DNA of 64,000 bases from assembly GCA_050173015.1 (NCBI GenBank), contig JBFXLE010000009.1, forward strand, positions 1 to 64,000, read 5' to 3'. Under the pieces are notes generated by a model that worked only from the letters and a program-made list of their open reading frames with translations, did not search any database and was not told where the DNA came from. Origin of the DNA: Calditrichaceae bacterium. GTDB taxonomy: Bacteria > Calditrichota > Calditrichia > Calditrichales > JBFXGD01. The position numbers and the translations under genes were made by a program. Shown piece after piece: positions 21,202 to 64,000 of the stretch; the stretch's first letter is position 1; the number at the start of each line of letters is the position of its first letter.

Positions 21202-21211
21202 GAGCGCGCCC

Positions 21212-22186: not shown

Positions 22187-22289
22187 ATTTCTCATAGCCA
22201 AATGGTCCCGCTAATGAATGTATAGTTAAACGATCAATCATTGTAATTGATCAGTAATTTTCCAATTTATACCGGAATCCAGTTCCGGA

Positions 22290-23021
22290 TTATGATCCCG
22301 ATAAACGGAATTCATATGGTCTCGCGTTTACCGCCAGCGCCGCGATATAACCGTGAGGCACCGTGAGTGAATCTAACTGCCAATCGCAGACAGAAGACGG
22401 ATCATGTCTGCATTCAATGATTTTGGCCGGTTCTCCGGGTTTGAGTGTGACATCAAATTCATTAAGGGGGATTGAAAGCCCCTTACCACATGCCTTTATA
22501 TATGCTTCCTTTCTGGTCCAGCAATTATAAAACGCTTCTTTTTGTTGATTTTGCGGTAAATTAATGAGTTGTCTGTATTCATGCTGAGAGAAAAAATTTC
22601 TGGCGATTTGAAGCGGTTCAGTATTTAATCGCATAAACTCAATATCAACCCCAATCTGGGAATCACCTGAAATCGCGATTAAAGCCAGATTATTGGAATG
22701 GGATACGTTAAAATAGGGGCCGGATACAGGGGAAACCAGATATGGCTTTCCGTAGAGATTGTATCCAAATTGCAATTTGCCCGGACTCATCCCTGTAGAT
22801 TGAGCGAGCAATATTCTTAGCTGACCACGGCAGGCGATATAGTGAATACGGTCTTTTTGGAACATAAAGCGGTTTGCCCGATCGAGCTCATCCGGAGAGA
22901 GCAGGTTTTCCAGCATCTCGATCACTTTAATCTGGATATTCAATCTTACACGCCAGACCTGAACATCACCATCAACGATTAAAGTCTGCTCACAATAATT
23001 TTTCCATGTTGTAAAATTCAT
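22290..23021 (-). CDS. Sfp-type 4'-phosphopantetheinyl transferase
   Basis: YGKPYL, FNVSHS, IGVDIE and WTRKEAYIKA motifs. Confidence 0.96.
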   Translation of the reverse strand: MNFTTWKNYCEQTLIVDGDVQVWRVRLNIQIKVIEMLENLLSPDELDRANRFMFQKDRIHYIACRGQLRILLAQSTGMSPGKLQFGYNLYGKPYLVSPVSGPYFNVSHSNNLALIAISGDSQIGVDIEFMRLNTEPLQIARNFFSQHEYRQLINLPQNQQKEAFYNCWTRKEAYIKACGKGLSIPLNEFDVTLKPGEPAKIIECRHDPSSVCDWQLDSLTVPHGYIAALAVNARPYEFRLSGS

Positions 23022-23821
23022 AGGATACGCCTTTGTAATATATTCAAGTTAAAATGAGCATTTATATCTCTGGTGATTGTACTGAGCAGAATCTGTTGGT
23101 GATCATTTAGATAAAAATGATCACCCGGGAACATTCTTAAAAAGAATGGACCGTTTGTCTGCGCGTTCCAGGGCTCAAGCGTTTCTTTGGCAATATGCTG
23201 GTCCTGTAAGCCGCCCAAAACAGATATCGGGCAATCAAGCGGTGTTCTTGCTTCATAAGTGTATGTTTCACACAGTTTAAAATCGGCGCGCAGAATGGGA
23301 ATCATCAGTTTGAGCAGATCCTGATGTTCAAATACCTCATCCGGAGTTCCGTTAAGTTTTTTTATCTCTGCCAGAAATTCAGTCTCGGGAAGATTATAAA
23401 TCAGTTTTTTATCGGATTCTAATTGAGGAGCCTTTGTTCCGGAAAGGAACAGATGCACCGGTTTGAGACCGAAATTGTTTTTGAGATGATGGGCTATTTC
23501 AAACCCGAGAATAGCGCCCAGACTATGCCCAAATAGGGCGAAAGGCCGGTCAATGCTGTTTTTTATTTCCAGTGACAATTCAGCGACAAGCGTTTCTATT
23601 CTCTGGCTTAGCGGTTCGTTGATGCGCTGCCCTCTGCCCGGTATCTCCACCGCGCAAACTTCCACGGTATCGGGCATGTGTTTTGGCCAGGAGCGGAAAA
23701 TGGCGCTGCTGCCTCCCGCAAATGGCAGACAAAATAACTTGATTTTAGCATGCTGAACCGGTTTTGGAATGATGATTCCCGATCCCGGCCGGCTCAGTAA
23801 AGTCGTTTTCATTTTATCCAT
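23018..23821 (-). CDS. Type II (editing) thioesterase
   Basis: CLPFAGGS, GHSLG, LRADF and GDHFYL motifs. Confidence 0.95.
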   Translation of the reverse strand: MDKMKTTLLSRPGSGIIIPKPVQHAKIKLFCLPFAGGSSAIFRSWPKHMPDTVEVCAVEIPGRGQRINEPLSQRIETLVAELSLEIKNSIDRPFALFGHSLGAILGFEIAHHLKNNFGLKPVHLFLSGTKAPQLESDKKLIYNLPETEFLAEIKKLNGTPDEVFEHQDLLKLMIPILRADFKLCETYTYEARTPLDCPISVLGGLQDQHIAKETLEPWNAQTNGPFFLRMFPGDHFYLNDHQQILLSTITRDINAHFNLNILQRRIL

Positions 23822-23877
23822 AGTTTACCTGATCATTCGTTTCACATAAATGAACTTGTGTTGCTGATCAAAAATAA

Positions 23878-24111
23878 TCATGATTGCTTCCTTGTTTTAT
23901 CTATTTCTTCCATTTTTTTTCTCAGACTCAGCGGCCGCATATCCGTCCAGACTTCATTGATATAGGACAGGCATTCTTCTTTTGTACCGTTTTTACCGGC
24001 GTCGCGCCAGCCAAGCGGATTTTCGCGGTCTGCCGGCCAAATTGAATATTGTTCTTCATGATTTAAAACAACTTTGTAAATTGTTTTATCCTCGCGTTCA
24101 TCAGCACTCAT
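23878..24111 (-). CDS. MbtH-like NRPS accessory protein
   Basis: [10 protein letters not shown]...PLGW...[18 protein letters not shown]. Confidence 0.98.
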
Positions 24112-24125
24112 CTTTACCTCCTAAG

Positions 24126-25463
24126 TTATTTGTTAATATCAATATATGTTGCTTCATCGTGACCCCAGATTTTAATTTTGTACGTGAACCCTTCAGGATC
24201 GAGTTTTGTTTTCGGTTCATAGGCAAGAAATTTTCTGTAATGCCTGCTAAAGGATATCAATATGGATAATACGGCCATGATCACGCCGCATATCATGTAG
24301 ATCAGCGGAATATTTTGACCCGTAAGATCCCCGGCCACTCCTCCGAGGAGCATGCCGAGAGGCGCGATACTGCCCGATAGCGTAGTGAGCACTCCGAATA
24401 CTCTTCCCCTGATCGCGCTTGGTGTGGATAATTGCAAAATAGTTATAATGGTGACCATTATGAATCCGTTAAACATGCCGCCGATAAAAGCGAGAAACAC
24501 TGCCAGCGGGGCAGAGGTAACCAATCCCAAAATCCCATATCCCCCGGATTCAATAATAGTAAAGATGATGAACATCTTTGAACGCGGTTTGCCGTGGAGA
24601 TTGAAAATTCCAACCGAGATGTATCCGAATAAAATTCCGATCCCATGGGATGCAAGGAAGAAACTATACCAGTCAACCGAAACTTTTAAAAAATTATCCA
24701 CATAAAAGGGGAGAAGTACAATTACCGGCATCGTAAAGAAATTGATAAATATTGAAACAAAGAGGAGCATTTTTAATCCGGTATTCTCTTTAATGTATAC
24801 AATCCCTTCCCACAAATCATTTTTAAACGATTGGTACTGGCCTTTTAAATCTTTTTCTTTTTCAGGGAAAACCTGCGGAATCTTTATAAATAATTCACTG
24901 ATTGCCGAAAACAAATAGCTGATCCCGTCGATCAGAACCACGATAGGGGCGCCGAGAATTTTAAACAATGTACTTCCGATTCCCTGGCCGAGGAAAAGAG
25001 ACACCTGTTCCGCGAATTGTGACATGGAGTTGGCGGCAGATAATTTTTCTTCAGGAACAAGGTCCGGAATTGAGGCGGAAATGGCCGGGCCGAAAAATGA
25101 ATTTACCGTAGAAGCTAATATGGTAATGCTAAATAACCAGACGGCGATTAATATGGTCGCTTCAGGCGCGGTGAACATAACGGCGGCCAGGCTGAGGGTC
25201 GCCAATCCATTGATCAGATCACTGAAAATGATGATATTGCGCCTCGAGTAACGATCTGCAAACACGCCTCCGATGGCGCTGAAAAGAACCACCGGCACGG
25301 CGGCGGATGTCCAGAGCAACCCGATCAGCGTTGCGGATTCAAAGGCATTTTTCATCCACCATACCATGGCAATCAAATAAATATGCGTTCCCAGTTTGCT
25401 TACAAACTGGCCCTGCCAGAGCAGCATGAAGTTTTTGTTTGTCAGTTTTACAGGCTTTTCCAA
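24126..25463 (-). CDS. MFS efflux transporter (DHA3/macrolide-efflux-like), probable product exporter
   Basis: About 12 TM helices, NFMLLWQGQFVS N-terminus, GVFADRYSRR motif A, RGRVFG; lies inside the NRPS cluster. Confidence 0.9.
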   Translation of the reverse strand: MEKPVKLTNKNFMLLWQGQFVSKLGTHIYLIAMVWWMKNAFESATLIGLLWTSAAVPVVLFSAIGGVFADRYSRRNIIIFSDLINGLATLSLAAVMFTAPEATILIAVWLFSITILASTVNSFFGPAISASIPDLVPEEKLSAANSMSQFAEQVSLFLGQGIGSTLFKILGAPIVVLIDGISYLFSAISELFIKIPQVFPEKEKDLKGQYQSFKNDLWEGIVYIKENTGLKMLLFVSIFINFFTMPVIVLLPFYVDNFLKVSVDWYSFFLASHGIGILFGYISVGIFNLHGKPRSKMFIIFTIIESGGYGILGLVTSAPLAVFLAFIGGMFNGFIMVTIITILQLSTPSAIRGRVFGVLTTLSGSIAPLGMLLGGVAGDLTGQNIPLIYMICGVIMAVLSILISFSRHYRKFLAYEPKTKLDPEGFTYKIKIWGHDEATYIDINK

Positions 25464-25472
25464 TTTTCCACC

Positions 25473-28400
25473 TTATTCCTTTTTATCTACATCCAGGTTG
25501 TCCAGCAGCAAACCGATCTTTTCCGCGAGTATTTTTACGTTTGGTTTGGTCATCATTGTAATATGGTCGCCGGGTACATTGATAATATCAACGCCTTTAC
25601 CGGCATATTTTTTCCAACCCAAATCATCAGGGAGATTATCGTAGTCCCGGTTTTCATCCGCCCTGAAAAGGGTGATTTTCCCGTTAAAATTGAGCGGTTT
25701 GTACTTTCTCCAGGCGCCGGTCTGAATTTTATTGATATGTACATAAAGTTTAAACTGATTTTGTCTGATAAATCTTGGAAGCACTTTTTCCTTTTTCGCG
25801 ATTTTGAGCACAAATTTCAGCTGCTCATCATATTCCATTTCACGAAGCATTTCCGCGTCGAGTTCAAAATGAGAGGAGAACATTTTTTGTAATAGCTCGC
25901 TGTCATCTTTTGGCTCCTCCTGGTGGGGGATATACGGACCGGAATCGAGAATACCCAGAAATCCCACTTCCTGATTCATTTCAGAGAACTGCCTGCCCAT
26001 CTCAAAAGCCACGATCACACCAAAGGACCATCCGGCAAGAAAATACGGTCCTTCCGGTTGTTGCCGGCGTACCGCGTCCACATAGTAGGATGCCATGGAT
26101 TCAATAGTCGTATGAAGATCCAGTTTACCATCAAATCCCCGCGCCTGAATCCCGTAAACCGGCCGGCGCGTATGAAGCAATTCAGCAAGCTGAATATACC
26201 AGTGAGCGCTTCCGCCTGTGGGATGAATAAAATATACCGGTTCAGATGCCGTTCCCTTTTTTAATTCCACAAGCGGATTAAAATTATCTGACTTCACTTC
26301 CTGAGTGAGCAGTTTTGCCAGATTCTCAATGGTCGGATCGGAGAAAAGGCTCACTAAAGGAATCTCTCTGTCAAATTCCTGCTGAATTTTATCAATAACC
26401 CTGATTGCCAGAAGAGAATGTCCGCCCAGATCAAAGAAATTATCCGTGATACCAACAATCGGTATATTTAGAATTTCCCGCCAAATCCGAACCAGTTTTA
26501 GCTCAATGCTGCCGCGGGGCGCGATATGGTCTTCATCAATCCTTATTTCGTCCAGCTCCGGCGATGGCAACGCTTTTCTGTTAACTTTACCGTTTGGCAG
26601 CAGCGGAAATTTTTCCAGACGGATCAACGCTCCGGGAATCATGAATTCGGGCAGATCATTTTTGAGCGCGTTTCTTATCTGCTGTGTGGAAATATCCGAA
26701 TTGTCTTTTATAATTATGTATGCCGTCAGACGCTTATCTCCGGGTGAATCTTCCCGTACAATCACCGCAGAATCGGTCACCCCCGGCACTTTTCTGAGCA
26801 AGGACTCAATTTCGCCGAGTTCAATGCGGAAACCGCGGATTTTTATCTGATTGTCAATTCGATCCAGATATTCAATATCTCCACCATCCAGGTAGCGTAC
26901 CAGGTCACCCGTGCGGTATAACCGGCTGCCGGGGATTTGATCAAACGGATTCGGCACAAATTTCTCCGCGGTAAGATGCGGCTTGTCCAGGTAACCGCGC
27001 GCCAGCCCTGGGCCGCCGATATAGAGTTCTCCCGGTATGCCCACCGGAAGCGGGTTCATAAACGGATCAAGAACATAAAGACGGATATTGTCAATGGGTC
27101 TGCCAATGGGAATCGCATCGCTGTCAGGTAATTCACTGACCCGGTGATAGGCGGCAACTATCGTTGATTCCGTGGGGCCGTATCCGTTAATAAAGATTCT
27201 GTTTTTATACCAGCGGCTCGCAATTCCGCGTGTACACGCTTCGCCGCCGGATACAATGGTTTTAAGTGACGGCATGGGATCTTCAGGTAAAATACTAAGC
27301 AGAGAAGGCGGAAGCAGCACTTTTGATATTTTTTCGGAGTTTATCAATTTGATAAATTCCGCCGGCGCCAGAAGCGATTCTCTGTTGACGATAATCAGGC
27401 ACCCGCCCGAACAAATAGTGGCGAAGACTTCCTCAACCGAGGCGTCAAAACTGAATGACGCGAACTGAAGCACCCGGCTTTTTGGGGTGTAAGAAAATTT
27501 ATCAATCAGAGAGTGGATAGTGTTGCAAAGTCCGCCGTGGTGCAGCATAGTGCCCTTGGGTTTACCTGTGGATCCGGATGTGTAAATCACATAGGCCATG
27601 TTCTCGGGAAAAACAGGCAGATTAATATTTTCGCTGCTCTCGTCACTGATGATGTCCCAGATTTCATCCATGTAGATGCGATGACCAAGATTCTCGGGCA
27701 GACCTGCGGCCAAAGATCGTTCCGTCAGTAAAATATTGGCTTTGGCATCTTCAAGCATATAGGAAATTCGTTCCTTGGGATACGCCGGATCGATCGGTAC
27801 ATACGCGCCGCCCGCTTTCAGAATCGCAAGAGCGGCGATAACCATTTCAACAGAACGGTTGAGACATATTCCGACCAATTCTTCCCTTTTGACGGATTGC
27901 TTTATCAGATAACGTCCAAGCTGATTAGCTTTGGCGTTAAGCGCGGAATAAGTTATTTCATAATCCCCAAATTTTACCGCGATGGCCTCGGGACTTTTTT
28001 CAACCTGAGCTTCGAACCAGAGATGAATCGAAACCATGTCGGGAAAATATTTCCCTGTTTGATTCCATTCAGAAACCATTGTTTGGGTTTCCGATGGTGT
28101 CAAAATCGGTATTTCGGATAGTTTTAGGTTTGGATTGGAAGCCATGGAGCTGAAAATGGTTTCCAGATGTCCGAGCATGCGTTTTATGACCGTTTTACTA
28201 AACAAATGGCTTTGATATGCCGCTTCCACGGCTAAATGATCTCCGGGAGAGGCGACGATGGTAAGCGGATAATTTGTTCTTTCAAATGATTCGATCTCAC
28301 TTATCTCAAGCGCGTTTTGATGCCGGTTCATTGATGTATTCACGGGAAAATTTTCAAAAACAACAATACTCTCAAACAAAGGCAGTCCCCGCGGCACTTC

Positions 28401-31400
28401 GGTCCAACCCTGAATATCTACCAGAGGGGTGAATTCATACTGTCTCATCTCAGCCTGCTGAGACTGGATTTTTTGCAGCCATTCAACCAGGGTGTCTGAT
28501 TGGTTTAAGAAAATTCTGACGGGGAGGGTGTTGATAAACAAGCCAACCATTGATTCCACACCGGGTATTTCCGCCGGCCGGCCGGAAACGGTTGCCCCGA
28601 ATACGACGTCATTCTCACTACTGTACCTGTTCAGCAGCAATGACCAGGCGCCCTGAATCAGGGTAAACATGGTCAACTGATTTTCTCTCGCTAATTTTCC
28701 TAATGATTCAGAAAGTCGGGGAGAGAGTAATACGCGTTCCTTTGAATAGCCATAGGGGGAATCAGACTTATGCATCTTAACCGGTAAAGGCGTGGGGGAA
28801 GTGAATCCAGCCAGTTGTGTTTTCCAGAAAGTTTTTGCCAGTTCCATATCCCTTTTCTGCAGCCACGAAATGTATTCACGATAGGGAGTTGAAAGTTCCT
28901 GACTGACAGGTTCTTTCTTTGATAAAGATTCGTAGAGCTCAAATATCTCTTTTAGTATGATTTGTGTGCCCCAACCGTCAAATAGAAGATGATGATGACT
29001 CCATACAAAATAATGTGTATTCTTGTCCAGTCTTATCAGGCCGATTCGCATCAGAGGCGCGTTTGCCATAGAAGTGATTTCTTTCAATTCGCCGCTCAGA
29101 AAATCATACATCAGGGATTTTTGTTTATCTGCGGAATCACCGCTCCAGTCTAAAATTGTGAACGGAATATCGATTGTTTTATATACAATCTGAAGCGGGC
29201 GATCGAGTCCTTTCCATATATAAGCGCTTCTCAGAACCTCATGTCTTTCGGATACCTTCTGCCAGGCGAATTTAAACATCTCCGGATCCAGTTCTCCGGT
29301 GAATTTGCAACTAAGCTGTTCGCTGTAAACTTCTGTTTCCGGGGACATCAAGGAATGAAAAAGCATTCCCTGCTGCATGGGTGAGAGGGGATAGATGTCT
29401 TCAATCAGAGGATTCGCTTCATAAATTCGGTCCAGATAAGCCTGATCGATCGAGGCAAGCGGGAAATCGGATGGGGATACTCCGCCGGCTGCCGCTGACA
29501 GGCAGTGAGAAATTATATCTTTAAGCGTTGTCAGATATCGGTTTGCCACATCTTCAATAGTTGATTTTTTATGAAAATTCCTGCTGTAACTCCATTCTAG
29601 TTGAAGCCTGCCCCCCGCGATTGTAGCGGTGATATCTATAAGATGGGAACGCGTGTTCGATGGGCTTCGTTCGGCTCCGCGGTTTTCCCCGGCCATCAAG
29701 AACATATTATTATCAGATGATCCGGAATGCTGGTCAAATTGTCCGAGATAGTTAAAACTGATTTTTGGCGATTGATTTCGGTCGTACTCTATATCCTTAT
29801 TCTGCGTTAAATACCGTAAAACCCCATAATTCATGGATCTTGAACGAAGTTCATGCAGTTGTTCTTTGATGGATTTAATCAATCGGCCTTTATCCGCCGT
29901 ATCGGGAGGGCAAGAGATATATACAGGATAAATATTGGTAAACCAACCGACCGTGCGGGATAAATCAACATCATCAAAAAGAGATTCCCTTCCGTGACTT
30001 TCCAGATCGACCGATACGGTAGTTTCACCCATCCATTCAGATAATACAACGGCAAGGGAAGTCAGAAGAATGTCATCAATCCCTGTCCGGTAAACCGACA
30101 GTACTTTTTTGAGCAATGATTCCGTATCATTCTCCGGTAGTGATACGCTGACCGTTTGAACGGATTTCTCATCATTTGCGCCGTTTGAAAAATCAATTAC
30201 AGGTTCACCTGCTTTTTTGGCGCGCTGTTCTAACCAGAATTCGGAATCCTTAACAGCCGGATCTGAAGAAGCGTAACTGTTCACTTTCTCTGCCCAGGAC
30301 TTAAATGATGTCGTCTTTCCGGGAAGATCAGAATGCCCGTTCTGAAGATGCTGAGTGTAAACCGACTGAAAATCATCCATCAGTATTCGCCACGAAACAC
30401 CGTCAACCGCCAGGTGATGGATGACCATTAACAATCGGTCATTACTGTCTGCAGCTCCTGAAAAATAAACGGCTTTCAAAACAGGACCCGTAGATATCTC
30501 AAGTGACGCTTGAGCTTTTTCGCATAAATGGTGAAGTTCAGCTTTAAATTGCTTTTTGTCGAGAGTTGATAAATCGATGTATTCAAACGGAATATTTTTA
30601 TCAGGCTCCGCGATTGATCCTTTCCAGCCTGTTCCTTCATTGACAAATCGTAATCGCAGGGCATCATGATGATGTATCAGGGTATCAATCGTCTTTGATA
30701 AAATATCCGGATCAAGCTTTTCACTGACCTCCAGCAGCAGCGACTGATTGTAATGATTCGGATGACTCAAATTTTGTTCAAAAAACCAATGAAGTATCGG
30801 AGTTAAGGGCACCTGACCGGTGACCACTCCCTGCTCAGCGTCAATTTTAACGCCGCTGTCAGCTACTGACGCAAGTTTTTCGATTGTCGGATACTGGAAA
30901 AATTGTCTCGGAGAAAGCCTGATTCCCGCCTGGTTAGCTCTCGCGATGACCTGAATGCTAATGATCGAATCCCCGCCGAGTTCAAAGAAATTATCCCGGG
31001 TACTCACTTCATTTAAGCCCAAAACATCTTTCCATATTTCAGCGAGAATTACTTCTTTTTCACTCACGGGCCGGATAAACTCATGCTCAACCATTTTACG
31101 ATCAATTTCAGGAATGGGCAGCGCTTTTCTGTCCACTTTCCCGTTAAGAGTCAGCGGGATTTCAGATACCGAAATGAAATACGAAGGGATCATATATTCA
31201 GGCAGTGTACCTGCAAGAAATTCCCTTAATTCAGTGATTGACGGCGGATTTGAGTTTTTACAGGTGAAATAGGCTACAAGTCTTTTTTTACCGGGTTCAT
31301 CTTCACGGGCAAGGACCGTTATTTCATCAATGGATTTATGCTGAAGCAGGACAGCTTCAATTTCTCCCGGTTCGATCCTGTAGCCCCGAATTTTAACCTG

Positions 31401-37277: not shown

Positions 37278-37339
37278 ACAGGAAATCCTTTTTTTTATTT
37301 AAAACTCACCATACACGCGAAAAATATCTTACTCGCGCG

Positions 37340-54500: not shown

Positions 54501-57500
54501 ATAATTATTTTTACTCTTAATAACGGCCCCGATTCAAGATTGAATGGTTGACGGGCCTCATCAGCCGTAATTTTTTTAGTTTTCAGAAACATTTCTTCTT
54601 CAGAACTTCCGCTTAGGTCCAAAGACGCAATCTTTATTTTTAGTTCGGGTAAAACAACCTGATGCGGATGCCCTTTTTCGCTTTTAAAAACGGTTCGAAG
54701 AATCTCGTGTCTGATAATAATTTGATTCAGACTGCGTTTAATAACTCCGATATCGACATGTCCATGCAGACGAAGCGCGGATGGGATATTATAATATGCA
54801 TTTCCGGGCGCCAACTGATCCAGAAACCATAATCTTTGTTGTGAAAAAGAAAGCGGTATTTCAGAATTCCTTTTTTTAGGCGCAAGGGTAGGGATATCCT
54901 TATTCATTCGCTCATCGCCGGTTGTCCCGATCAGTTTTGCGAGGGCAGCGATTGTCGGATTTGAGAAAAAATCGGGTAGTGAGATCTCAACCGCGAATAT
55001 ATCTCTGATTCTCGATGCAAGCCTGGTGGCGGTTAATGAATGTCCGCCCAGATCAAAAAAATTATCATGAATACCTATTTTCTCGATACCTAAAATTTTG
55101 CTCCAGATACCGGTTAACAGTTCGTCGATCTGATTTCCGGGCGCGGTAAATTCCTCATCACGACTCAAATCCGCCCCTTCGGGTAAGGGCAGGGATGATC
55201 TGTCAATTTTTCCACTTGAAGAAACCGGAAACTGATCCATGAAAACATAATAGACAGGTATCATATATTCCGGAAGATGTTTCTTGAGAAAGATTTTTAA
55301 TAATTCGGTATCAGGATTTTTATCGGGCTCCGGCATGTAATAGGCGATCAGTACTTTTTCACCGGGAGTCATTTCACGGGCCGTCACAACAACTTTTTTG
55401 AGATCTTTATGGTTTGAAAGTACTGATTCGATCTCCCCCGGTTCGACACGGAATCCGCGGATTTTAACCTGATCGTCAATCCTGCCGACGAATGCCAGAT
55501 TCCCGTCTCCGATGGATCGGGCAATATCACCGCTCCTGTAAAGTCTCGCGCCGGGTTGATCCGAAAACGGATCAGGTATAAATTTTTCAGCGGTTAGTCC
55601 GGGATTATTTAAATACCCCCGGGCAATTCCCGGACTGCTTAAGCATAACTCACCCGGTACTCCCCGCGGCTGAGGGTGAAACTGTTCGTCAAGGACGTAT
55701 GCCCGGACATTATCTATTGGTTTTCCTATGGGAATATTGTCGGTTAACGGTAAATCCTCATGGATGGGATTAACCGTAGCGCAAACCGTCACTTCGGTAG
55801 GTCCGTATCCATTGATAAAATGCCGTCCGATTCTCCAGCGGGACGCAGTATCCCTGGTGCATGGCTCACCGACTGAGCCAACCACCTCGAGATCCGGTAA
55901 ATCATTTTCTGACAAAATCGCGAGTAGGGAAGGCGGTGCAACAAATGTATTTACTTTTTGATCTCTTAATAATCCGGTTAGTTTATCTTCAGAAAGCAAG
56001 GTATCCCGGTCGGATATGATGAGACATCCACCCGATAAAAGGGTGCTGAATATTTCCACTACGGACGCGTCGAACGAAAGTGAAGCGAGCTGAAAGAATC
56101 GTTTGCCGGCTGAAATATGAAAAACCTTCGCGAGAGCCAGGGCGGTATTCACCGCACCGAGATGCTGCAACCATGTTCCTTTCGGACGTCCGGTAGAACC
56201 GGATGTATATATGATATAGGCAAGATGTTCAGAAGACACGACGCCTTCCGGATCTTCACCGGACTCATTGGAAATAAGATCATCAGAATTTTGAATGTTT
56301 ATCACCCGCAAATCGCTGTTTGGCAGATTTTGTATCAGGCTGTTTTCAGAAATAATAAGATTGACACCGGAATCTTTCATGATATATTTCAAACGTTCAT
56401 CCGGAGTGGATGGATCTATGGGCAGGTACGCGCCACCTGCCTTCAAAATTGCCAGAACAGTGATAATCATCTCCGGGGAGCGATTGAGATAGACCGCCAC
56501 GAGAAATTCGGGAACCACACCTTCTCCTTTTAGTATCGCGGCCAGCTGATTTGATCGTTTATTTAAATCCGAGTAGGTTAAGATTGTATCTCCGAACCGT
56601 ACAGCGTGAAAATCAGGATGCTCCTTTGCCTGTTTTTGGAATATCTCATGCAGGCATTTGTTTTTTGGGAATTCAGTTTGTGTTTTATTCCATTCCCTGA
56701 TGATTGAATCAAGTTCAGGGTTTGTCAGCAGCTTTATCTCCGAGACGGTTTTATCCGATCTGATTAGCATTGAAGTCATTATCACTTCAAGATGCCCCAG
56801 CATCCGGCTTATTGTCTCGGCATCGAATCGATCTGTCTGATAGGCGATTTCCAGAACGATATCTTCATGCGCTGATCCCACTATCGTAAGGGGATAGTTG
56901 GTCTGCTCTATGGCGTTGATGTCAAATATGCTGATGCTGTTGTTCAGCTCCTTGACGGAAGAGCTGACCGGATAGTTTTCGAACACCACGATGCTTTCAA
57001 AGAGCGGTACATTACCCCGGATTCCACTCTGTTTTTGAACTTCCGCCAGCGAACTGAACTCAAACTGACGCATTCCGGCAGACTGCTGATGAATCTCTTT
57101 CAAAAATGTCATAATCTTTTGTCCGGGCGATACCCTGATTCTCATGGGAAGCGTATTTATGAACAGGCCGATCATGGATTCGACCCCGTCCAGTTCAGGC
57201 GGGCGCCCCGAGACAGTGACGCCGAAAACAACATCCTTCTCGCTGCTGTATCTGCTCAGAAGGACAGACCAGGCGGCCTGGATCATTGTACTGATCGTAA
57301 GGTGATTGCTCCTCGTAAAGCGGGTGATGTTCTCGGACAACGACGCGGATAATCGTCTCATGGATTTCGCGTAGCCGCCGGATTTCCCGGATCCGCTGAC
57401 AGGAATATCGACCGTTAATGGAGTCGGTGCCGTGACGTCACTTAACTTATCCCGCCAATATTCTTCCGCGGCTTGCGCATCCTGCTGATTGAGCCAGTTA

Positions 57501-58048
57501 ATATAATCCCGGTATGGACGGGTTCTTTCGAGCCGGACAGCCTTGTTTGAGGCGATGGAATCATACAGGGAAAATATTTCTTTAAACAGCAAAGGAAGCG
57601 ACCAGCCGTCGATCAGGCTATGATGATTACTCCACACCATCTGCCAGACTTGCTTCTTAACTCTGATGACCGTCAAACGCAACAAAGGAGCTTTTGACAG
57701 GTTGAATCCTTTCGCCCGGTCATTTTTTAGAAAATCCGTGAATTTTGCGTCAATCTGATTTTCTGAAAATTCTATCCAATCAAGCTCTTCGATCGGAACT
57801 TCAACCGATTTATGTACAACCTGAAGCATTTTTTCAATCTTTTTGAAAACAAAGGATGTTCTCAGAACCGGATTTCTCTTTACTGCTTCTTTAACCGACT
57901 CTTTGAACGCCGCGATATTAAATTCACCGGATATCTTAAATGTTGTTTGTTCAAAATATACACTGCTTTCAGTCGAATATATGCTGTGAAAAATCATTCC
58001 CTGCTGCATGGGGGAAAGTGTGTATACGGACTCTATATTTTTATCCAT
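51581..58048 (-). CDS. NRPS: C(DCL)-A(unknown)-T-C(LCL)-A(Phe)-T
   Basis: N-terminal VYTLSPMQQGMIFH...HHSLIDGWS, internal LSFSQQRLWFL. Codes DAVVGVGVCK and DAWTIAAVCK. Confidence 0.95.
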   Translation of the reverse strand: MDKNIESVYTLSPMQQGMIFHSIYSTESSVYFEQTTFKISGEFNIAAFKESVKEAVKRNPVLRTSFVFKKIEKMLQVVHKSVEVPIEELDWIEFSENQIDAKFTDFLKNDRAKGFNLSKAPLLRLTVIRVKKQVWQMVWSNHHSLIDGWSLPLLFKEIFSLYDSIASNKAVRLERTRPYRDYINWLNQQDAQAAEEYWRDKLSDVTAPTPLTVDIPVSGSGKSGGYAKSMRRLSASLSENITRFTRSNHLTISTMIQAAWSVLLSRYSSEKDVVFGVTVSGRPPELDGVESMIGLFINTLPMRIRVSPGQKIMTFLKEIHQQSAGMRQFEFSSLAEVQKQSGIRGNVPLFESIVVFENYPVSSSVKELNNSISIFDINAIEQTNYPLTIVGSAHEDIVLEIAYQTDRFDAETISRMLGHLEVIMTSMLIRSDKTVSEIKLLTNPELDSIIREWNKTQTEFPKNKCLHEIFQKQAKEHPDFHAVRFGDTILTYSDLNKRSNQLAAILKGEGVVPEFLVAVYLNRSPEMIITVLAILKAGGAYLPIDPSTPDERLKYIMKDSGVNLIISENSLIQNLPNSDLRVINIQNSDDLISNESGEDPEGVVSSEHLAYIIYTSGSTGRPKGTWLQHLGAVNTALALAKVFHISAGKRFFQLASLSFDASVVEIFSTLLSGGCLIISDRDTLLSEDKLTGLLRDQKVNTFVAPPSLLAILSENDLPDLEVVGSVGEPCTRDTASRWRIGRHFINGYGPTEVTVCATVNPIHEDLPLTDNIPIGKPIDNVRAYVLDEQFHPQPRGVPGELCLSSPGIARGYLNNPGLTAEKFIPDPFSDQPGARLYRSGDIARSIGDGNLAFVGRIDDQVKIRGFRVEPGEIESVLSNHKDLKKVVVTAREMTPGEKVLIAYYMPEPDKNPDTELLKIFLKKHLPEYMIPVYYVFMDQFPVSSSGKIDRSSLPLPEGADLSRDEEFTAPGNQIDELLTGIWSKILGIEKIGIHDNFFDLGGHSLTATRLASRIRDIFAVEISLPDFFSNPTIAALAKLIGTTGDERMNKDIPTLAPKKRNSEIPLSFSQQRLWFLDQLAPGNAYYNIPSALRLHGHVDIGVIKRSLNQIIIRHEILRTVFKSEKGHPHQVVLPELKIKIASLDLSGSSEEEMFLKTKKITADEARQPFNLESGPLLRVKIIILKPDDHILLITIHHIIADGWSIGVLLNEFATLYQDFSTRKTSQLAGLPIQYADFSIWQRQRLQGEKLKEELEYWKNTIGINPPVLELPADHPRPATQSFNGQTIKLHLSDNLAGNLIQLSRKEGTTLFMTLLAAFQTLLHRYTGQEEILVGSPIAGRTRSELENLIGFFVNTLVLKAEFGDMPTFKQLLRQVRETTLNAFMHQDLPFEYLVEALQPERDMSHSPLFQVAFVLQNTPFEMVDLPEFNIIPIETENLTAKYDLTLTIAKTMEGMDCYFEFNTDLFEPATILRMQTHFENILTEIIDNPDKRVSEISISGKDELKLMLSEWNDTKTAYPDAATVPQWFEQKVNEFPDTIAVIQEKQSLTYRELNEKANQLARRLKNHGIGADKIIGICLPRAMNIPVSVLAILKAGGAFLPIDPIYPKDRIEYMIKDSGISALITHESILNTLPDINIHTILPDKEDEQLSVASKENQHSDLNADNLAYVIYTSGSTGRPKGTLLHHRGLLNLANAQKKAFGIRRGARILQFASLSFDASVWEMVMALLNGGTLCLAGEEELLTGQNLYDILKNEKITTVTLPPSVLAVMPDGPLPDLQTIITAGEKCTIDLARRWSEGRSFFNAYGPTETTVCASMYAVTPDVSIAPPIGKPIDNFRLYILDKSLQPLPTGAAGELHIGGVGLARGYLNRPGLTAEKFIPDPFSQTLGGRLYKSGDLVRYLPDGNIEFLGRIDQQVKIRGFRVEPGEIETIIDEIDEVKETFVMVREDSPGDKRLVAYIVTENSHEPDLPVLKSKLSERLPGYMIPSSFVMLNAMPLTPNGKIDRKALPEPEFSRESLRSEYAAPTNETEEKLSGIVTELLNLDKTGIHDNFFELGGHSLLATQFMSQIREQFAIDLPLSLLFEKPTVAALSREIIKISASEENGKPAKIERIDRDGEDLEALLLSIDKLSEDETKSMLNQKLKSKKRDMTNNG

Positions 58049-61000
58049 TTATTCATCCCGGTTATCATTTAATTCTGACAACATATTATCAAGCTCCTCC
58101 TGATCTAAATTGACGTCAAGAAAGTCGGATGGTGTGTAATCACCGGAAGCGGTTTTCTCACAATGGTCAATTAATTGCTGAAGTTCATCCATGATATTTG
58201 TTAAGAACCGTCTGACCGTCTCTTCTTTGATTAAATTACCGCTGTAATCAATGGAGAGATTAAGACTGTCGTTTACAATCGTACCGCTGATATCCAGCAG
58301 GTGTGTTCTTTTAGCGTTTGGGGCGCGTTCGGCGCCGGTATTGGGATCAATTTCATCGAAAATGTCACCGGAATCCCGCAAACCGAACTGTCCGAGATAA
58401 TTGAATGAAATTTCCGGAACAGGGGCCGCCTTGAACCGCTTTCGGATGATCATGTCATCGCTTAAATAACGGAGCAATCCGAATCCTATGCCGTGATTAG
58501 GAATCATTCTCATCTGCTCTTTTACAGTTTTAAGCGTATCCTGAATTTGAATCGTTCCATTCATGTACAGCGACACCGGATACGCCGCCGTAAACCAACC
58601 AACTGTCCTTGAGAGATCAACATCATCAAAAAGATCTTCCCGGCCGTGACCTTCAAGCTGAATATACATATGATGTTTTCCGGTCCATTTAGCGTGGGAC
58701 CGGATTATGGCCGTGAGCAGATTTTCCTGTATTTGCGTATTGTACAAAGACGGTACGGATTTTAAGAGTTTTTGTGTTTGTCGCGCTTCCAATATGGAAC
58801 TTAATCTCTGTGTGGACGATTCACTGTTCCTGCCGTCCGGAAAATCAACGGGCAACAATTGTTTTTCCACCGGGAATTGATTCTGCCAGAAAGGTACTTC
58901 TTGCGGATTTATTTTATCATTCGCGAATTTCTTTAGTTTTTCTGTCCATGTTTTGAATGAAGTTGTTTTTGGAGGAAGTTCAATTGTTCTCCCTGATTGA
59001 CTCCAATGATACGCGGAAACGAGATCTTCCAGCAGAATTCTCCAGGAAATTCCGTCCATCGCCAGGTGATGAATTGCAATAAATAATCTGTCGGATAGTG
59101 TTGGATCCAACCTGAAATAGGCCGCGTTTATGAGAGTCCCGGAGGAAAGATTAATACCGGCCTGCAGCATATTGCACTCATCTGTTATTCGTTTTGTTTG
59201 ATGCTCAACGGGAATATCTGTTAAATCAATGACTGAAAATGGGATATCCTTCGGATTATCAGAAAATGATTGGAGAATTGTTTTATTCTCTAAGACAATT
59301 TTTAATCTAAGAGCGTCATGATGGCTGATAAGCTCCCGGAATACATTCTCCAGAGATCCGGTATCCATCCTGTTAGTTGTCTTAAGGAGTACAGACTGAT
59401 TCCAATGATGCTTTTCGATAAAATCCTGCTCAAAGAACCACTTCTGAATCGGGGATAATTCCGCCGTACCGGTGACGATTCCCTGATCAGTGATTATTTC
59501 CTTTTTTGTTACCGCTACGGATGCCAGAAATTCAATGGTCGGGTTTTCAAAAAGCTGCCGGGGTGAAAGGATCAGACCGGCATTTTTTGCTCTGGCGATC
59601 GCCTGAATGCTGAGAATTGAATCACCGCCAAGTTCGAAAAAGTTATCTTTTATGCCGATTTTATCAATACCCAATAATTCCCGCCAGATTTTTACAAGGA
59701 TTTCTTCGCGCTCACTACCGGGGGCGATGTAACCTGTTTTTAAATCAGACCGGCTGATTTCAGGTTCAGGCAGGGATTTTCGGTCCACCTTTCCTGTCGC
59801 GGCTACCGGCATCTTATCCAGAAACATAAACATGGCCGGAATCATGTAGTCAGGCAGTGTAGATTTCAGATAGGCTTTTAGTTGTTCGGTGGATACCTTA
59901 TCCCGATCGGCCGGAACGATATAGGCAATCAACTGCCTGTTTCCCGCCACTTCTTTACTCATGACGATGGCTTCTTCAACTTCATCATGAAGCAGCAGGG
60001 AGGACTCTATTTCGCCAAGTTCAATCCTGAACCCGCGGATTTTGACCTGATTGTCGATTCGCCCAAGAAATTCGATGTTTCCATCCGGAAGAAATCTAGT
60101 CAGATCACCGCTTTTATACATGCGGCTTCCTCCATCCGGGTTGAAAGGATCGGGTATGAATTTTCCCGCTGTCAAATCGGGTCTGTTCAAATACCCTCTG
60201 GCCAGCCCTTCGCCTCCTATATGCATTTCTCCGGGTATCCCTTCCGGCACCGGTTGCAGGTCCTTGTCCAGAATATAAATTCTGTAATTCGGGAGGGGGC
60301 GCCCGATGGGAATATTATTTCTTTCCGCGGATAATTTTTCTGTCAGATACCAGGAAGCGGCAACGGTTGTCTCGGTGGGGCCGTAGGCATTGTAAAATTG
60401 GCGTCCGCGTGACCATCGGTCCACAATTTCTCTGGTGCATACATCTCCCCCGGAGGCCAGGGTATCAAGATCGGGGAATTGGTCGCCATCGATCACGGAC
60501 AGGACGGATGGCGGAAGAACAGCATTGGTTATCTGACCCTGTTTCATCAGTTTTACAAATCCTTCTCCCGGCAGCATTGAGTCCTGACTGGTAAGATAAA
60601 GAGTCGCGCCCGATGTTAAAGCCGTAAATATATCGGCGACTGATCCGTCAAAGCTGTAGGAAAAGAACTGTATAACGCGTCGATTCTTATGGATATTAAA
60701 TTTTTTCTGATAAGCCAGAGCCAGATTCAGAACACTGCGGTGCCGAATGGTAACACCTTTTGGACGGCCGGTCGAACCTGAAGTGAATATTACATATGCC
60801 AGATTGAGTTCACAGACATCCGTTTTTGGATTTTTAGCACTTTCGGCAGCAAAATAGTCAGAATCACTGTCAAAACTGATCAATTCTGTATTTGTACCGG
60901 GAAAACCGTCTAAAAAACGATCCTGTGTCAGTATATATTTTATTCCACAGTCCCGAATGGCAAATGCCAGTCTTTCACGTGGATAATATGGATCAAGAGG

Positions 61001-64000
61001 TACATAAGCAGCCCCCGATTTAAGTATTCCCAGGATTCCTGCTATCATTTCAATCGAACGCTCTACCGAAAGACCAATAAATTGTTCGGGGCCCGCGCCT
61101 TTTTTGATCAGATAATTTGCGATCTGATTGGCGCGATTATTCAATTCCCGGTATGTGATGCGTGTGTCTTCAAATACAAGGGCGATTGTATCGGGTGTTT
61201 TTTCTGCCTGCTGCTCAAAATATTGATGAATTGTTACGTCACGCGGATAATCGCCTGAAATGTTGTTCCAGCCATGTATAATTTTATTAAAATCAGTCGT
61301 TGAGAGCAGGGGATAGGTCGAAATCCTGCTTTCAGGCTGATCAATGACAGCGGTCAGTACATTTTCAAAATGAGTATGCATCCTCATGATCGTGGCTTCA
61401 TGAAATAAATCGGCGCAATATTCCCAGCTGCAGTCGTATTGCTCTTTATTGTCCGTTATGTTCAGGGTAAGATCGAATTTTGATGTTCGCGTATTGATTT
61501 CAACCGATTCGATATTCAGGCCCTCCAGATTCAGTGACTGAATTGATTGTTGCTGATAGGCGAACATGACTTGAAAAATCGGTGAGTGACTCAGTCTTCG
61601 CTCGATTTCCAGACCGTCCACAATCTTCTCGAACGGAATATCCTGATGGGCAAGCACATTTAATGTGGTTTGTTTTATCCGGTTCAGGTATTCACCGAAA
61701 GTGGGATTATCATCAAAATCTCCCCGAACAATGAGGGTATTGACAAAGAAACCGATTAAATTTTCGATTTCCCTATGATTCCTGTTAGCGACCGGAGTCC
61801 CTACCAGAACCGTATTTTGGCCCGAATACCGGTGTAATATCACCTGAAAGACCGAGAGAAGAACCATAAATGGTGTGGTTTCCGTTTTCTTGCTGAACAA
61901 TCGGATTTTATCAGTCAGTCCCACGGGTAAGCTGAAATGAATCACATTCCCGTTGAAAGACTGCACAGCTTTCCTCGGCCTGTCCGTTGGCAGTTCCAGA
62001 ATTGTGGAAGCGCCGAGAAGCTGTTTTTTCCAAAAATTGATTTCCCTTTGGATACGATCCTTTGACATCCATTCTTTTTGCCATACCGCGAAATCAGAAT
62101 ATTGAACATCAAGTTCAGGCAGTTCGGGTGTTTCATCCTTAAGATAAGCGTTATATAACACATTTATTTCTTTCATAAGCACCTCCATCGACCATCCGTC
62201 AGAAATGATATGGTGCATATTCCAGAAAAATGTGTGCTGTTCTTCGGTCAGCTTAATAAGTTTTGTTGTAAACAGCGGTACGGCGGACAAATCGAACGAA
62301 TATTGTGCTTCCTTTTCAAGGATATCAAAAAGAATTTTTTCTTTTTCCGGGTTATCGGAGAGATCGATTTCCGGCAGATCGATATTTAGCCGGTCATATA
62401 CCTGGAGACGCGCGATACCGTCGATCGTTTGAAACGCGGATCTGAGAATATTATGCCGGTTCACGGTAAACCGGATGCTCTTTAGTAGTGCCTCTTTATC
62501 TAATTTTCCCGTAAGCCTGATTGCGGCGGCGATGTTATAGTTATGATTACCCGGTTCAAACTGATCAATAAACCAGAGTCTCTCCTGCGCGAAAGAAAGT
62601 ATTGGCGTGACCTTCTCCGGCGCGGGCCGGATGACCGAATATTTTTCTGTTTGTTCCACAGTCCCGCCAGTCTCCGCGTTAATTGTATAGGATGAAATTA
62701 TCTCTTTGCCAAATAATCGTCCGGTAGTTTCTTCAAAATGACGGCTTAAATACGCGGCATATTGACCAATGGTAGGATAGATGAACGCTGTCCGGACCGA
62801 TAAGGACTCATCAAGTTTTTCCTGAATCCTGTTTATTAAAACCGCGGCCTGAAGTGAATTACCGCCGGATTCAAAAAAGTTGTCATGAATACCGCCAGGG
62901 GTTCGTTCCAGTACGTTTTCCCAGACTGAAAAAAGGAATCGTTCAAGGGAATTACGGGGTGGAACGTTTTCTGCTGATTCTGTGGAAGATTGATAGGGAT
63001 CCGGAAGGGAATTCCGGTCAATTTTTCCGTTTGGTGTCAACGGAAATTTTTCCAGCTTCCTCAGAACGGATGGTACCATATATTCGGGAAGACTATGCAA
63101 TAAAAAGTCCCTCAGAGCCTCCGGAGACGGATTCCCCCCTTTTTTGGGGATATAATAACCAATCAGATTGCCTGCGGTTGAACTGACTACTACCGCCTCG
63201 TCAATTTGATGATGAATTCTCAAATTATATTCAATCTCTCCAAGTTCTATCCTGAAGCCCCTCACCTTTACCTGGTGATCCAGTCGTCCAAGAAATTCGA
63301 CCGTTCCTTCGCTCATGAGACGTACACGGTCGCCGGTACGGTACATTCTGGATCCGGCATTGTCGGAAAAAGGATCGGGAATAAATTTTTCAGCCGTGAG
63401 CGCGGCTTTTTTGTAATATCCGCGTCCGACACCTTCACCCCCAATGAATAATTCACCCGGGATACCCGCGGGCAAAGGATTCATCCATGAATCGAGAATA
63501 TAAAATTTCCCGTTGGCTACCGGTCTTCCGATTGTTGGCCTTTCAGATGTAGGGACGACAGGAAACATGGTGGAATCAACAGTGCATTCAGTAGGACCGT
63601 ACATATTATAAAATTGTGTATCACGGAACTGATGAAGTTTTTGCCAGGTGTCTTCATCGATCGCCTCGCCTCCCGGTAGAACCGCGAGCGGTTTCCATCC
63701 CCGGCCATCGAATAGCCCTGAAAGAATAAGCAGTTTTAGCTGTGACGGTACACAATCCAGAACATCCAGTCTGTTTTTTCTTATAAACGAAACCAATCTG
63801 TCGCCATCGGCCCGGATGTCTTGTGGGATAATAATTATGGAATGTCCGAAGATCAGTGTCAGGATTTGTTGAACAGAAGCATCAAAGGCGATCGGGGCGT
63901 TCAAACTTACCCTCAGGCTTTCTCCATCATATCGTGAATAAACGGTTTCATAAAGGTTCGCGGCGAGATTCAGGGCAGAACGGTGCTGTATCATGGCGCC
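58049..64000 (-). CDS. NRPS truncated by the window edge: ...A(Gln/Glu)-T-C-A(unknown, Phe-clade)-T-E
   Basis: Frame open to base 64000 (...GAMIQH, just after the A3 motif). T motifs GGNS and GGDS, E motif HHLAMDGISW, C-terminal YTPSDF. Codes DAQDLGMVDK and DGAVAGAVAK. Confidence 0.93.
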   Translation of the reverse strand, partial: GAMIQHRSALNLAANLYETVYSRYDGESLRVSLNAPIAFDASVQQILTLIFGHSIIIIPQDIRADGDRLVSFIRKNRLDVLDCVPSQLKLLILSGLFDGRGWKPLAVLPGGEAIDEDTWQKLHQFRDTQFYNMYGPTECTVDSTMFPVVPTSERPTIGRPVANGKFYILDSWMNPLPAGIPGELFIGGEGVGRGYYKKAALTAEKFIPDPFSDNAGSRMYRTGDRVRLMSEGTVEFLGRLDHQVKVRGFRIELGEIEYNLRIHHQIDEAVVVSSTAGNLIGYYIPKKGGNPSPEALRDFLLHSLPEYMVPSVLRKLEKFPLTPNGKIDRNSLPDPYQSSTESAENVPPRNSLERFLFSVWENVLERTPGGIHDNFFESGGNSLQAAVLINRIQEKLDESLSVRTAFIYPTIGQYAAYLSRHFEETTGRLFGKEIISSYTINAETGGTVEQTEKYSVIRPAPEKVTPILSFAQERLWFIDQFEPGNHNYNIAAAIRLTGKLDKEALLKSIRFTVNRHNILRSAFQTIDGIARLQVYDRLNIDLPEIDLSDNPEKEKILFDILEKEAQYSFDLSAVPLFTTKLIKLTEEQHTFFWNMHHIISDGWSMEVLMKEINVLYNAYLKDETPELPELDVQYSDFAVWQKEWMSKDRIQREINFWKKQLLGASTILELPTDRPRKAVQSFNGNVIHFSLPVGLTDKIRLFSKKTETTPFMVLLSVFQVILHRYSGQNTVLVGTPVANRNHREIENLIGFFVNTLIVRGDFDDNPTFGEYLNRIKQTTLNVLAHQDIPFEKIVDGLEIERRLSHSPIFQVMFAYQQQSIQSLNLEGLNIESVEINTRTSKFDLTLNITDNKEQYDCSWEYCADLFHEATIMRMHTHFENVLTAVIDQPESRISTYPLLSTTDFNKIIHGWNNISGDYPRDVTIHQYFEQQAEKTPDTIALVFEDTRITYRELNNRANQIANYLIKKGAGPEQFIGLSVERSIEMIAGILGILKSGAAYVPLDPYYPRERLAFAIRDCGIKYILTQDRFLDGFPGTNTELISFDSDSDYFAAESAKNPKTDVCELNLAYVIFTSGSTGRPKGVTIRHRSVLNLALAYQKKFNIHKNRRVIQFFSYSFDGSVADIFTALTSGATLYLTSQDSMLPGEGFVKLMKQGQITNAVLPPSVLSVIDGDQFPDLDTLASGGDVCTREIVDRWSRGRQFYNAYGPTETTVAASWYLTEKLSAERNNIPIGRPLPNYRIYILDKDLQPVPEGIPGEMHIGGEGLARGYLNRPDLTAGKFIPDPFNPDGGSRMYKSGDLTRFLPDGNIEFLGRIDNQVKIRGFRIELGEIESSLLLHDEVEEAIVMSKEVAGNRQLIAYIVPADRDKVSTEQLKAYLKSTLPDYMIPAMFMFLDKMPVAATGKVDRKSLPEPEISRSDLKTGYIAPGSEREEILVKIWRELLGIDKIGIKDNFFELGGDSILSIQAIARAKNAGLILSPRQLFENPTIEFLASVAVTKKEIITDQGIVTGTAELSPIQKWFFEQDFIEKHHWNQSVLLKTTNRMDTGSLENVFRELISHHDALRLKIVLENKTILQSFSDNPKDIPFSVIDLTDIPVEHQTKRITDECNMLQAGINLSSGTLINAAYFRLDPTLSDRLFIAIHHLAMDGISWRILLEDLVSAYHWSQSGRTIELPPKTTSFKTWTEKLKKFANDKINPQEVPFWQNQFPVEKQLLPVDFPDGRNSESSTQRLSSILEARQTQKLLKSVPSLYNTQIQENLLTAIIRSHAKWTGKHHMYIQLEGHGREDLFDDVDLSRTVGWFTAAYPVSLYMNGTIQIQDTLKTVKEQMRMIPNHGIGFGLLRYLSDDMIIRKRFKAAPVPEISFNYLGQFGLRDSGDIFDEIDPNTGAERAPNAKRTHLLDISGTIVNDSLNLSIDYSGNLIKEETVRRFLTNIMDELQQLIDHCEKTASGDYTPSDFLDVNLDQEELDNMLSELNDNRDE

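Follow-up and report, generated by a model that had tools for sequence, protein, structure and literature searches.

The window analysed here is a stretch of 64,000 nucleotides from a Calditrichaceae bacterium (contig JBFXLE010000009.1, positions 1 to 64,000), and much of it is taken up by a nonribosomal peptide synthetase (NRPS) gene cluster on the minus strand. Open reading frame (ORF) calling placed five large co-directional ORFs, nrpsA to nrpsE, across positions 25473-64000, and together these encode 11 NRPS modules (Table 1). Pfam detected Condensation, AMP-binding, AMP-binding_C and PP-binding domains in all five proteins, as well as Thioesterase PF00975 at nrpsE residues 3680-3921. From nrpsA through the gene for a 4′-phosphopantetheinyl transferase (PPTase), the genes lie on one strand with intergenic gaps of −8 to +62 nt, such that the stretch reads as one operon. 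The start of nrpsC overlaps the stop of nrpsB by 8 nt, the major facilitator superfamily (MFS) transporter gene starts 9 nt after nrpsE, the accessory genes are spaced by −4 to +56 nt, and the PPTase gene and the stop of the type II thioesterase (TEII) gene overlap by 4 nt. No terminator-like site was found in the 88-nt gap after the PPTase gene, a promoter scan was not decisive (28 promoter-like sites, 22.5 expected), and neither Rfam families nor tRNAs were found in the 64-kb window. The G+C content of the NRPS genes is 0.42-0.48, compared with 0.41-0.48 in the flanks.

We mapped domains with phmmer, taking one window copy of each domain type as the query and locating all copies. The map comprises 11 adenylation (A) domains, the first of which is cut by the window end, 11 carrier (T) domains, 13 condensation-fold domains and one thioesterase (TE). 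Three of the 13 condensation-fold domains were assigned as epimerization (E) domains from their weak condensation (C) score, their position after a carrier and an FNYLGQ motif, and the other ten are C domains. The assembly order reads (A)-T-C-A-T-E / C-A-T-C-A-T / C-A-T-C-A-T-E / C-A-T-C-A-T / C-A-T-C-A-T-E-C-A-T-TE, modules 2, 6 and 10 each being followed by an E domain and the line closing with a terminal TE. This is the same domain order as in the first-pass annotation of the stretch, which had also listed a dedicated PPTase, TEII, MbtH-like protein and exporter; Pfam recovered all four between 22290 and 25463. The map shows 11 colinear modules on five translationally coupled proteins.

Table 1 Genes and domains of the NRPS cluster, with positions in the window
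Feature	Position	Strand	Comment
nrpsA	58049-64000	−	1983 aa within the window; 5′ end cut by the window; codes DAQDLGMVDK and DGAVAGAVAK
nrpsA module 1, partial A, T	62747-64000	−	
nrpsA module 2, C-A-T	59513-62605	−	
nrpsA E domain	58052-59461	−	
nrpsB	51581-58048	−	2155 aa; codes DAVVGVGVCK and DAWTIAAVCK
nrpsB module 3, C-A-T	54929-58021	−	C domain of the post-E subgroup
nrpsB module 4, C-A-T	51761-54859	−	
nrpsC	43723-51588	−	2621 aa; codes DAQDLGMVDK and DATKVGEVGK
nrpsC module 5, C-A-T	48370-51492	−	
nrpsC module 6, C-A-T	45190-48309	−	
nrpsC E domain	43726-45144	−	
nrpsD	37340-43726	−	2128 aa; codes DAATVVGIGK and DAWTIAAVCK; own database record P0002 (100%, 2128 aa)
nrpsD module 7, C-A-T	40625-43705	−	C domain of the post-E type
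nrpsD module 8, C-A-T	37442-40555	−	
nrpsE	25473-37277	−	3934 aa; codes DVGEIGSIDK, DATKVGEVGK and DAELVGGIVK
nrpsE module 9, C-A-T	34056-37199	−	
nrpsE module 10, C-A-T	30861-33986	−	
nrpsE E domain	29433-30812	−	
nrpsE module 11, C-A-T	26307-29393	−	C domain of the post-E type
nrpsE TE	25515-26240	−	
MFS transporter	24126-25463	−	Probable exporter; Pfam MFS_1 (E 8.9e-35) and MFS_3 'transmembrane secretion effector' (E 4.1e-31); NCBIfam matches (Mef, EntS-like) all below their cut-offs
MbtH-like protein	23878-24111	−	77 aa; PF03621, E 5.9e-23, profile 1-53 of 53 covered
Stand-alone (type II) thioesterase	23018-23821	−	PF00975, E 4.2e-51
Sfp-type PPTase	22290-23021	−	Pfam ACPS and AASDHPPT_N; best NCBIfam match HetI, 192 bits (below the cut-off of 370)

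The catalytic motifs are well preserved along the line. All 13 condensation and epimerization domains keep the His motif HHxxxD, all 11 carrier domains keep their Ser, the TE carries GWSFG at nrpsE residue 3749, and no stop or frameshift interrupts the 38.5 kb of coding sequence. Carrier motifs follow the architecture, with GGDSI in all three carriers that precede an E domain and GGHSL in seven others. None of the five NRPS proteins contains a dual E/C motif. The C domains that follow an E domain (C3, C7 and C11) share 39-49% identity among themselves and 22-26% with the remaining seven, whose identity to one another is 37-51%; the group fits D-specific donor sites, for which we infer the name DCL (D-donor, L-acceptor). 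The E domains and this distinct group of downstream C domains together point to D configuration at modules 2, 6 and 10. We also considered a recent internal duplication behind the repeated Glx / D-X / X / Phe pattern and rejected it: A domains with the same code are only 55% (A1/A5), 55% (A4/A8) and 69% (A6/A10) identical, so any duplication would be old.

The first-pass annotation had placed the start of the line outside the window, and a related locus indicates what that start contains. A scan of GTDB species genomes with nrpsA as the query returned two loci, a Streptomyces contig at 34% identity and a second locus, L001, which is the whole 27,409-bp contig JBFXGD010000033.1, described as 'MAG: Calditrichaceae bacterium isolate CA_2019_TPIn_155' (MAG, metagenome-assembled genome). 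Gene order in L001 is that predicted for the whole line and is colinear with the window, running from a gene for a fatty acyl-AMP ligase (FAAL) and polyketide synthase (PKS) through a one-module NRPS gene to nrpsA, nrpsB and nrpsC. The proteins align without gaps at 83.3% identity for nrpsA (1983 aa) and 83.5% for nrpsB (2155 aa; L001:17552-24019), and nrpsC is 83.5% identical over its first 1132 residues. The L001 contig stops inside nrpsC, and the comparison covers modules 0-5 (the extra module being module 0), for all of which the specificity codes are identical. The ratio dN/dS is 0.12-0.13 at dS 0.68-0.76 (Nei-Gojobori), indicating long divergence under purifying selection. L001 is a different species-level genome, with dS of about 0.7, and its cluster is uncharacterized.

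In L001 the nrpsA homologue is full-length, with 2645 aa and the order C-A-T-C-A-T-E, and two same-strand genes lie upstream of it. The nearer encodes a single C-A-T module of 1125 aa with the code DAENIGAITK. The farther (L001:2-6163), 39 nt upstream of the extra-module gene and cut by the contig end, encodes a protein with the order FAAL(partial)-ACP-KS-AT-like-KR-ACP (ACP, acyl carrier protein; KS, ketosynthase; AT, acyltransferase; KR, ketoreductase). Its recognized parts are an AMP-binding domain with a DIP2-like C-terminal domain, an ACP, a KS, a KS-AT linker, an AT-like domain, a KR N-terminal subdomain (KR-N), a KR and a second ACP, and the FAAL call rests on the AMP-binding domain, the DIP2-like domain and the ACP that follows. 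Counterparts of both proteins are present among database records. P0122 (2191 aa) has the same Pfam set as the L001 PKS protein and is 62% identical to it in the searched region and 77.4% overall, and P0251 (1125 aa) is 83.8% identical to the L001 extra-module protein and also carries the code DAENIGAITK. The KS motifs DTACSS and HSTGT occur in the L001 protein (by pattern), and DTACSS, HSTGT and NIGH in P0122. P0122, P0251 and the nrpsD record P0002 each lie on one contig of 167,860 bp. Given this shared contig size and the synteny with L001, the genes for P0122 and P0251 very likely lie just beyond base 64000. The earlier minimum of 11 residues therefore holds and can be refined: the line very probably comprises 12 amino-acid modules behind an acyl cap that the PKS would extend, yielding an N-acylated peptide.

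Protein ends along the line are consistent with this arrangement. The genes are ordered PKS, extra module, then nrpsA, B, C, D and E. Both proteins that end in an E domain precede a protein starting M.KNI..(V)Y.LSPMQQGM. Three carrier-ending proteins have acidic tails of the LS.EE type, and the proteins after them start ..LSPEKR.L.EL.L, with full-length nrpsA taken from L001; the PKS protein's C-terminal tail and the next protein's N terminus resemble the other carrier-to-C junctions of the line. The nrpsD-to-nrpsE junction shows neither pattern. These two patterns, which we take to be COM (communication-mediating) or docking elements, support the protein order derived from gene order.

Three readings of the specificity codes were made: one used motif anchors after the 11 A domains had been aligned with MAFFT, one aligned the domains pairwise to module 8, and one took hidden Markov model (HMM) columns. 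The MAFFT and HMM readings each reproduced all 11 of the codes that had been read by eye, and the pairwise reading reproduced ten, its mismatch in module 10 being a one-column alignment shift. GrsA numbering was set through the pocket stretch of module 8, which aligns to 1amu_A 233-389 from query residue 1; the mapping was calculated from the reported alignment ends, on the assumption that the first 99 residues are free of gaps. The pocket positions read were 235, 236, 239, 278, 299, 301, 322, 330 and 331, with Lys at 517 placed by A-domain alignment.

Seven of the 11 residues encoded in the window are predictable, or eight of 12 with an Arg-like first module. Papers are cited here by PubMed Central identifier. 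DATKVGEVGK (modules 6 and 10) is itself given as Asn in Table 2 of PMC3547906, so the Asn type first proposed for it stands, although not as a code one change away from the Asn type. DVGEIGSIDK (module 9) is given as Orn (PMC3992020), and DAWTIAAVCK (modules 4 and 8) agrees at nine of ten positions with the code that PMC4831472 quotes for Phe in GrsA. DAQDLGMVDK (modules 1 and 5) shares nine of ten positions with DAQDLGVVDK, which serves both Glu and Gln (PMC12283262), making the original label of Glx the right caution. The code of the extra module, DAENIGAITK, matches nine of ten positions of the Arg consensus quoted in the same paper (PMC12283262).

Other codes proved rarer. For DGAVAGAVAK, DAVVGVGVCK, DAATVVGIGK and DAELVGGIVK (modules 2, 3, 7 and 11) there was no match in the literature searched, and nothing was found there for DAQDLGMVDK and DAENIGAITK either; the supplement of PMC12283262, with 508 signature sequences, lay outside that search and may hold a match. 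Five of these six unusual codes occur in 0 of about 8.4 million full texts. We then surveyed pockets in 1278 A domains from 510 database proteins. The closest outside codes in this set agreed with those of modules 2 and 11 at 7 of 10 positions each and with that of module 3 at 6 of 10, and the code of module 7 matched only its own record. Among these 510 proteins, DAENIGAITK recurs once outside both Calditrichaceae genomes, in P0009 from Nostoc sp. (residues 2003-2507), and P0422 and P0198 carry the variants DVENIGAITK and DQENIGAITK, indicating that this pocket type recurs.

Database comparisons returned distant homologues beyond the two Calditrichaceae genomes. Three homologue searches were run, each scoring the 8000 candidates that share most words with the query, and the records from the cluster's own contig (P0002, P0122 and P0251) and from L001 (P0121 and P0241) were left out of the identity counts. 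The other matches listed are at most 45% identical for the nrpsD region, queried with residues 1-480 (119 of 120), at most 35% for the L001 PKS region (118 of 120) and at most 51% for the L001 extra module (118 of 120). Named homologues among the matches listed are mostly from cyanobacteria (Nostoc and Microcoleus), Acidobacteriota and other MAGs. With A11-T-TE as the query, an exhaustive search of representatives gave a list of 150 proteins, none above 45% identity; this list, ranked by summed score, is led by giant multi-module proteins and lacks the query's own protein, and so says little about close relatives. The low identities and the empty code searches are consistent with a product that is unrecognized.

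We judge it probable that an uncultured Calditrichaceae bacterium (Calditrichota) here encodes an intact FAAL/PKS-NRPS hybrid line for making an N-acylated dodecapeptide; the window would hold the downstream two thirds of that line. As L001 and P0122 suggest, the FAAL would charge the ACP with a fatty acid, and the KS would extend the chain by one C2 unit with malonate from a trans supply, after which the KR-like domain may reduce the β-keto group. The extra C-A-T module would then add an Arg-like residue ahead of nrpsA. The 11 window modules would elongate the chain, with the E domains setting D configuration at positions 3, 7 and 11 of 12, that is, at every fourth residue. Finally, the TE would free the chain by hydrolysis, lactamization or macrolactonization onto the 3-OH. 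The predicted product is (3-hydroxy- or 3-oxo-)acyl-(Arg-like)-Glx-D-X-X-Phe-Glx-D-Asn-X-Phe-Orn-D-Asn-X. Orn, the Arg-like residue and the Glu239-bearing pocket of module 11 suggest a cationic peptide, and two Phe residues with the acyl tail would make it amphipathic. Such a product would most likely be membrane-active, as an antibiotic or surfactant.

The predicted line can be set beside several known systems. FAAL-ACP-KS-AT-KR-ACP is the order of cyanobacterial olefin synthases, and for the desmamides it has been proposed that a reduced, extended acyl chain is passed to the NRPS (PMC11837247). As in those systems, FAAL, ACP, KS, AT-position, KR-position and ACP lie here in one protein. Compared by description, the present line differs in an AT without Ser, an atypical KR loop and 12 residues of other composition; the nearest non-Calditrichaceae relative of the starter region, among the matches listed, is at most 35% identical. 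Lipopeptides with β-amino fatty acids, including mycosubtilin/iturin, the puwainaphycins and the laxaphycins (PMC11837247; PMC4219810, PMC4699238, PMC7524897), are made by lines that likewise have FAAL lipoinitiation and a KS followed by a multimodular NRPS, and laxaphycin B-type peptides also comprise 12 residues, with L and D configurations mixed (PMC4699238). Their lines include an aminotransferase, a domain absent from the Pfam sets of P0122 and L001, so a β-amino acid is not expected and the cluster is not a member of this class. The residue composition of β-amino lipopeptides also differs from that of the predicted product.

Resemblance to the tyrocidine and gramicidin S synthetases of Brevibacillus lies in the Phe code, which matches nine of ten positions of GrsA, in the exact Orn code and in E-to-next-protein junctions like those that we take to be of the COM type. 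Against PDB sequences, the module 8 A domain scored 453 bits with TycA and 413 bits with GrsA, both among its better matches; because one LgrA A domain scored about 345 bits, not far below, this similarity is generic. Those synthetases start with an A-T-E initiation module, unlike the C or FAAL starts seen here in a line of 12 modules in seven proteins, and the residue orders of the Tyc and Grs products differ from the predicted one.

Several observations weigh against the lipododecapeptide reading. Four of the 11 window codes have no known match, and a third of the sequence is unpredicted. In the C domain of module 10 the His motif is HHIISDNWS, Asn replacing the usual Gly (33564-33590; nrpsE residues 1230-1238), and the carrier of module 1 has GGNS in place of GGHS or GGDS (62848-62862; nrpsA residues 380-384). 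The C-domain subtypes come from clustering among the cluster's own domains only, and that P0122 and P0251 belong with the window is something we infer from the equal-size contig and the L001 synteny. Other points concern the starter protein. The acyltransferase signature is GHSxGE (PMC3992020), and the AT-like domain instead reads GTDSGE in L001 (residues about 1225-1232) and GYDSGE in P0122 (residues about 1210-1260), with Asp in place of the Ser nucleophile in both genomes, which is not the signature of a cis-acting AT. Its Pfam match spans profile positions 2-116 of 319 only and falls below the gathering score, and the AT-like/KR-N region is the least conserved part of the protein, 52-73% identical between the genomes compared with 81-99% for FAAL and KS. 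We read this domain as a structural remnant; lacking a nucleophile, it would need malonate to come in trans. PksJ is the only solved KR to which the KR-like domain aligns, at 29 bits; the domain keeps the Ser, Tyr and Asn, with a nucleotide loop of AGSFDKSA where PksJ has GGTRGIG. With a nucleophile-less AT and an atypical KR loop, it is uncertain in which oxidation state the acyl cap emerges and even whether the chain is extended.

These starter features are also what could be said for a peptide that is not lipidated through the PKS, the FAAL/PKS being inactive or serving another pathway and the NRPS making a plain or differently capped 12-mer. That the AT-like domain lacks its nucleophile, the KR-like loop is atypical and the surrounding region is the least conserved would all fit such a loss. 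However, the extra module and nrpsA both start with C domains that need an upstream acyl donor, the FAAL, both ACPs and the KS with its three motifs are intact and highly conserved, and in L001 the PKS gene is close to the extra-module gene on the same strand, with junction ends that resemble those elsewhere in the line. We consider this alternative unlikely. A silent or decaying relic without a product would account for the odd motifs in one C and one carrier domain and for the degenerate AT; against it stand the uninterrupted 38.5 kb of coding sequence, the presence of all core motifs and the low dN/dS. We give it very little credence, and the cluster is probably functional.

Two further possibilities concern the identity of the product. 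It is quite improbable that the cluster makes a member of a characterized lipopeptide family, for example one from cyanobacteria or Firmicutes. In its favour, classical systems of Bacillales and Streptomyces share the Phe, Orn, Asn and Glx codes, cyanobacteria supply most of the nearest listed homologues from outside Calditrichaceae, HetI is the best match of the PPTase, and cyanobacterial lipopeptides are well known for FAAL-PKS lipoinitiation (PMC11837247). Yet, with 8000 candidates scored in each search, the identities of the other homologues listed amount to ordinary between-pathway NRPS similarity, five of the six unusual codes are missing from the full texts searched, and the G+C content of the NRPS genes matches that of the flanks. 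A siderophore is highly improbable in place of a membrane-active lipopeptide: the window encodes no Cy domain, N-hydroxylase or formyl- or acyl-transferase, and no catechol, hydroxamate or heterocyclization machinery, and the composition is mostly Phe, Asn and Glx. The exporter does fall in the MFS_3/EntS-like group, an MbtH gene is present, and a Fur-family regulator and a ZnuABC transporter are encoded 7-10 kb away, but five unrelated genes lie between the cluster and these metal genes, the nearer of which are on the other strand.

The genes on the far side of the PPTase gene were considered in placing the edge of the cluster. Four same-strand genes (17394-22201, minus strand) follow it with gaps of 88, 10, −4 and 8 nt, and encode a 329-aa lipoprotein-like protein with CarboxypepD_reg-type look-alikes, a GAF sigma-54 activator, a Ser/Thr kinase with PEGA, and a protein of 257 aa whose look-alikes are DUF5683-like. 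These tightly packed genes may control the cluster or may be an unrelated FCB-group module. We set them aside as part of the cluster because the two unknown proteins resemble widespread FCB-group families, and kept the edge at 22290. The metal-uptake operon mentioned above (11931-14919, plus strand) encodes a ZnuA-like binding protein, an ABC ATPase, an ABC-3 permease and then the Fur-family regulator, a probable repressor. Farther out, a complete cytochrome bd oxidase locus (4396-10911, minus strand) comprises a gene for an Rrf2-family regulator together with cydA, cydB, cydD and cydC, with CydD and CydC scoring above NCBIfam cut-offs. At 1553-2928 (plus strand), two small ORFs of 146 and 132 aa, overlapping or adjacent and without a family match, come after an extracytoplasmic function (ECF) sigma factor gene and may be an anti-sigma pair.

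Several lines of evidence bear on the host. The gene at 14966-17173 (minus strand) encodes a 735-aa protein with CarboxypepD_reg repeats, FlgD-Ig and a C-terminal type IX secretion system (T9SS) type A sorting domain, a secretion marker of the FCB superphylum. The unexplained flank proteins resemble families that are commonest in Ignavibacteriota, Bacteroidota, Calditrichota and Rhodothermota, and NCBI names P0122 and P0251 as from a Calditrichaceae bacterium. Together with the closeness of L001 and the even G+C content, these observations support a Calditrichaceae host. The suggestion in the first-pass annotation that the host falls outside the usual NRPS-rich phyla is thereby upheld, the only close relative among GTDB species genomes being a Calditrichaceae MAG.

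NRPS and PKS-NRPS clusters of Calditrichota have been counted in surveys of Shark Bay mats (reviewed in PMC7960500) and cold seeps (PMC11051675), and with transcripts in Arctic vent biofilms (PMC13635244), and a 'notable enrichment' of PKS-NRPS hybrids in Calditrichota is described for Antarctic MAGs (PMC13476314). In the available text of this survey literature we found no compound or dissected pathway from the phylum. For the stronger proposal, that this is the first defined natural-product pathway of Calditrichota, the case is evenly balanced; the product would then be a cationic lipododecapeptide of new structure in which every fourth residue is D, four residues, possibly non-proteinogenic, come from pockets without a known counterpart, and the cap is made by a PKS with a nucleophile-less AT served in trans. 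Orphan NRPS clusters are common in metagenomes, and the present one is a good genome-mining lead. It is kept under purifying selection in two genomes, its order, stereochemistry and seven of 11 window residues are predictable, and it has its own activation, editing and export genes, making it a realistic target for heterologous expression or synthesis. It leaves the general understanding of NRPSs unchanged, and its worth lies in this lead and in a case study of unassigned pockets and a nucleophile-less AT.

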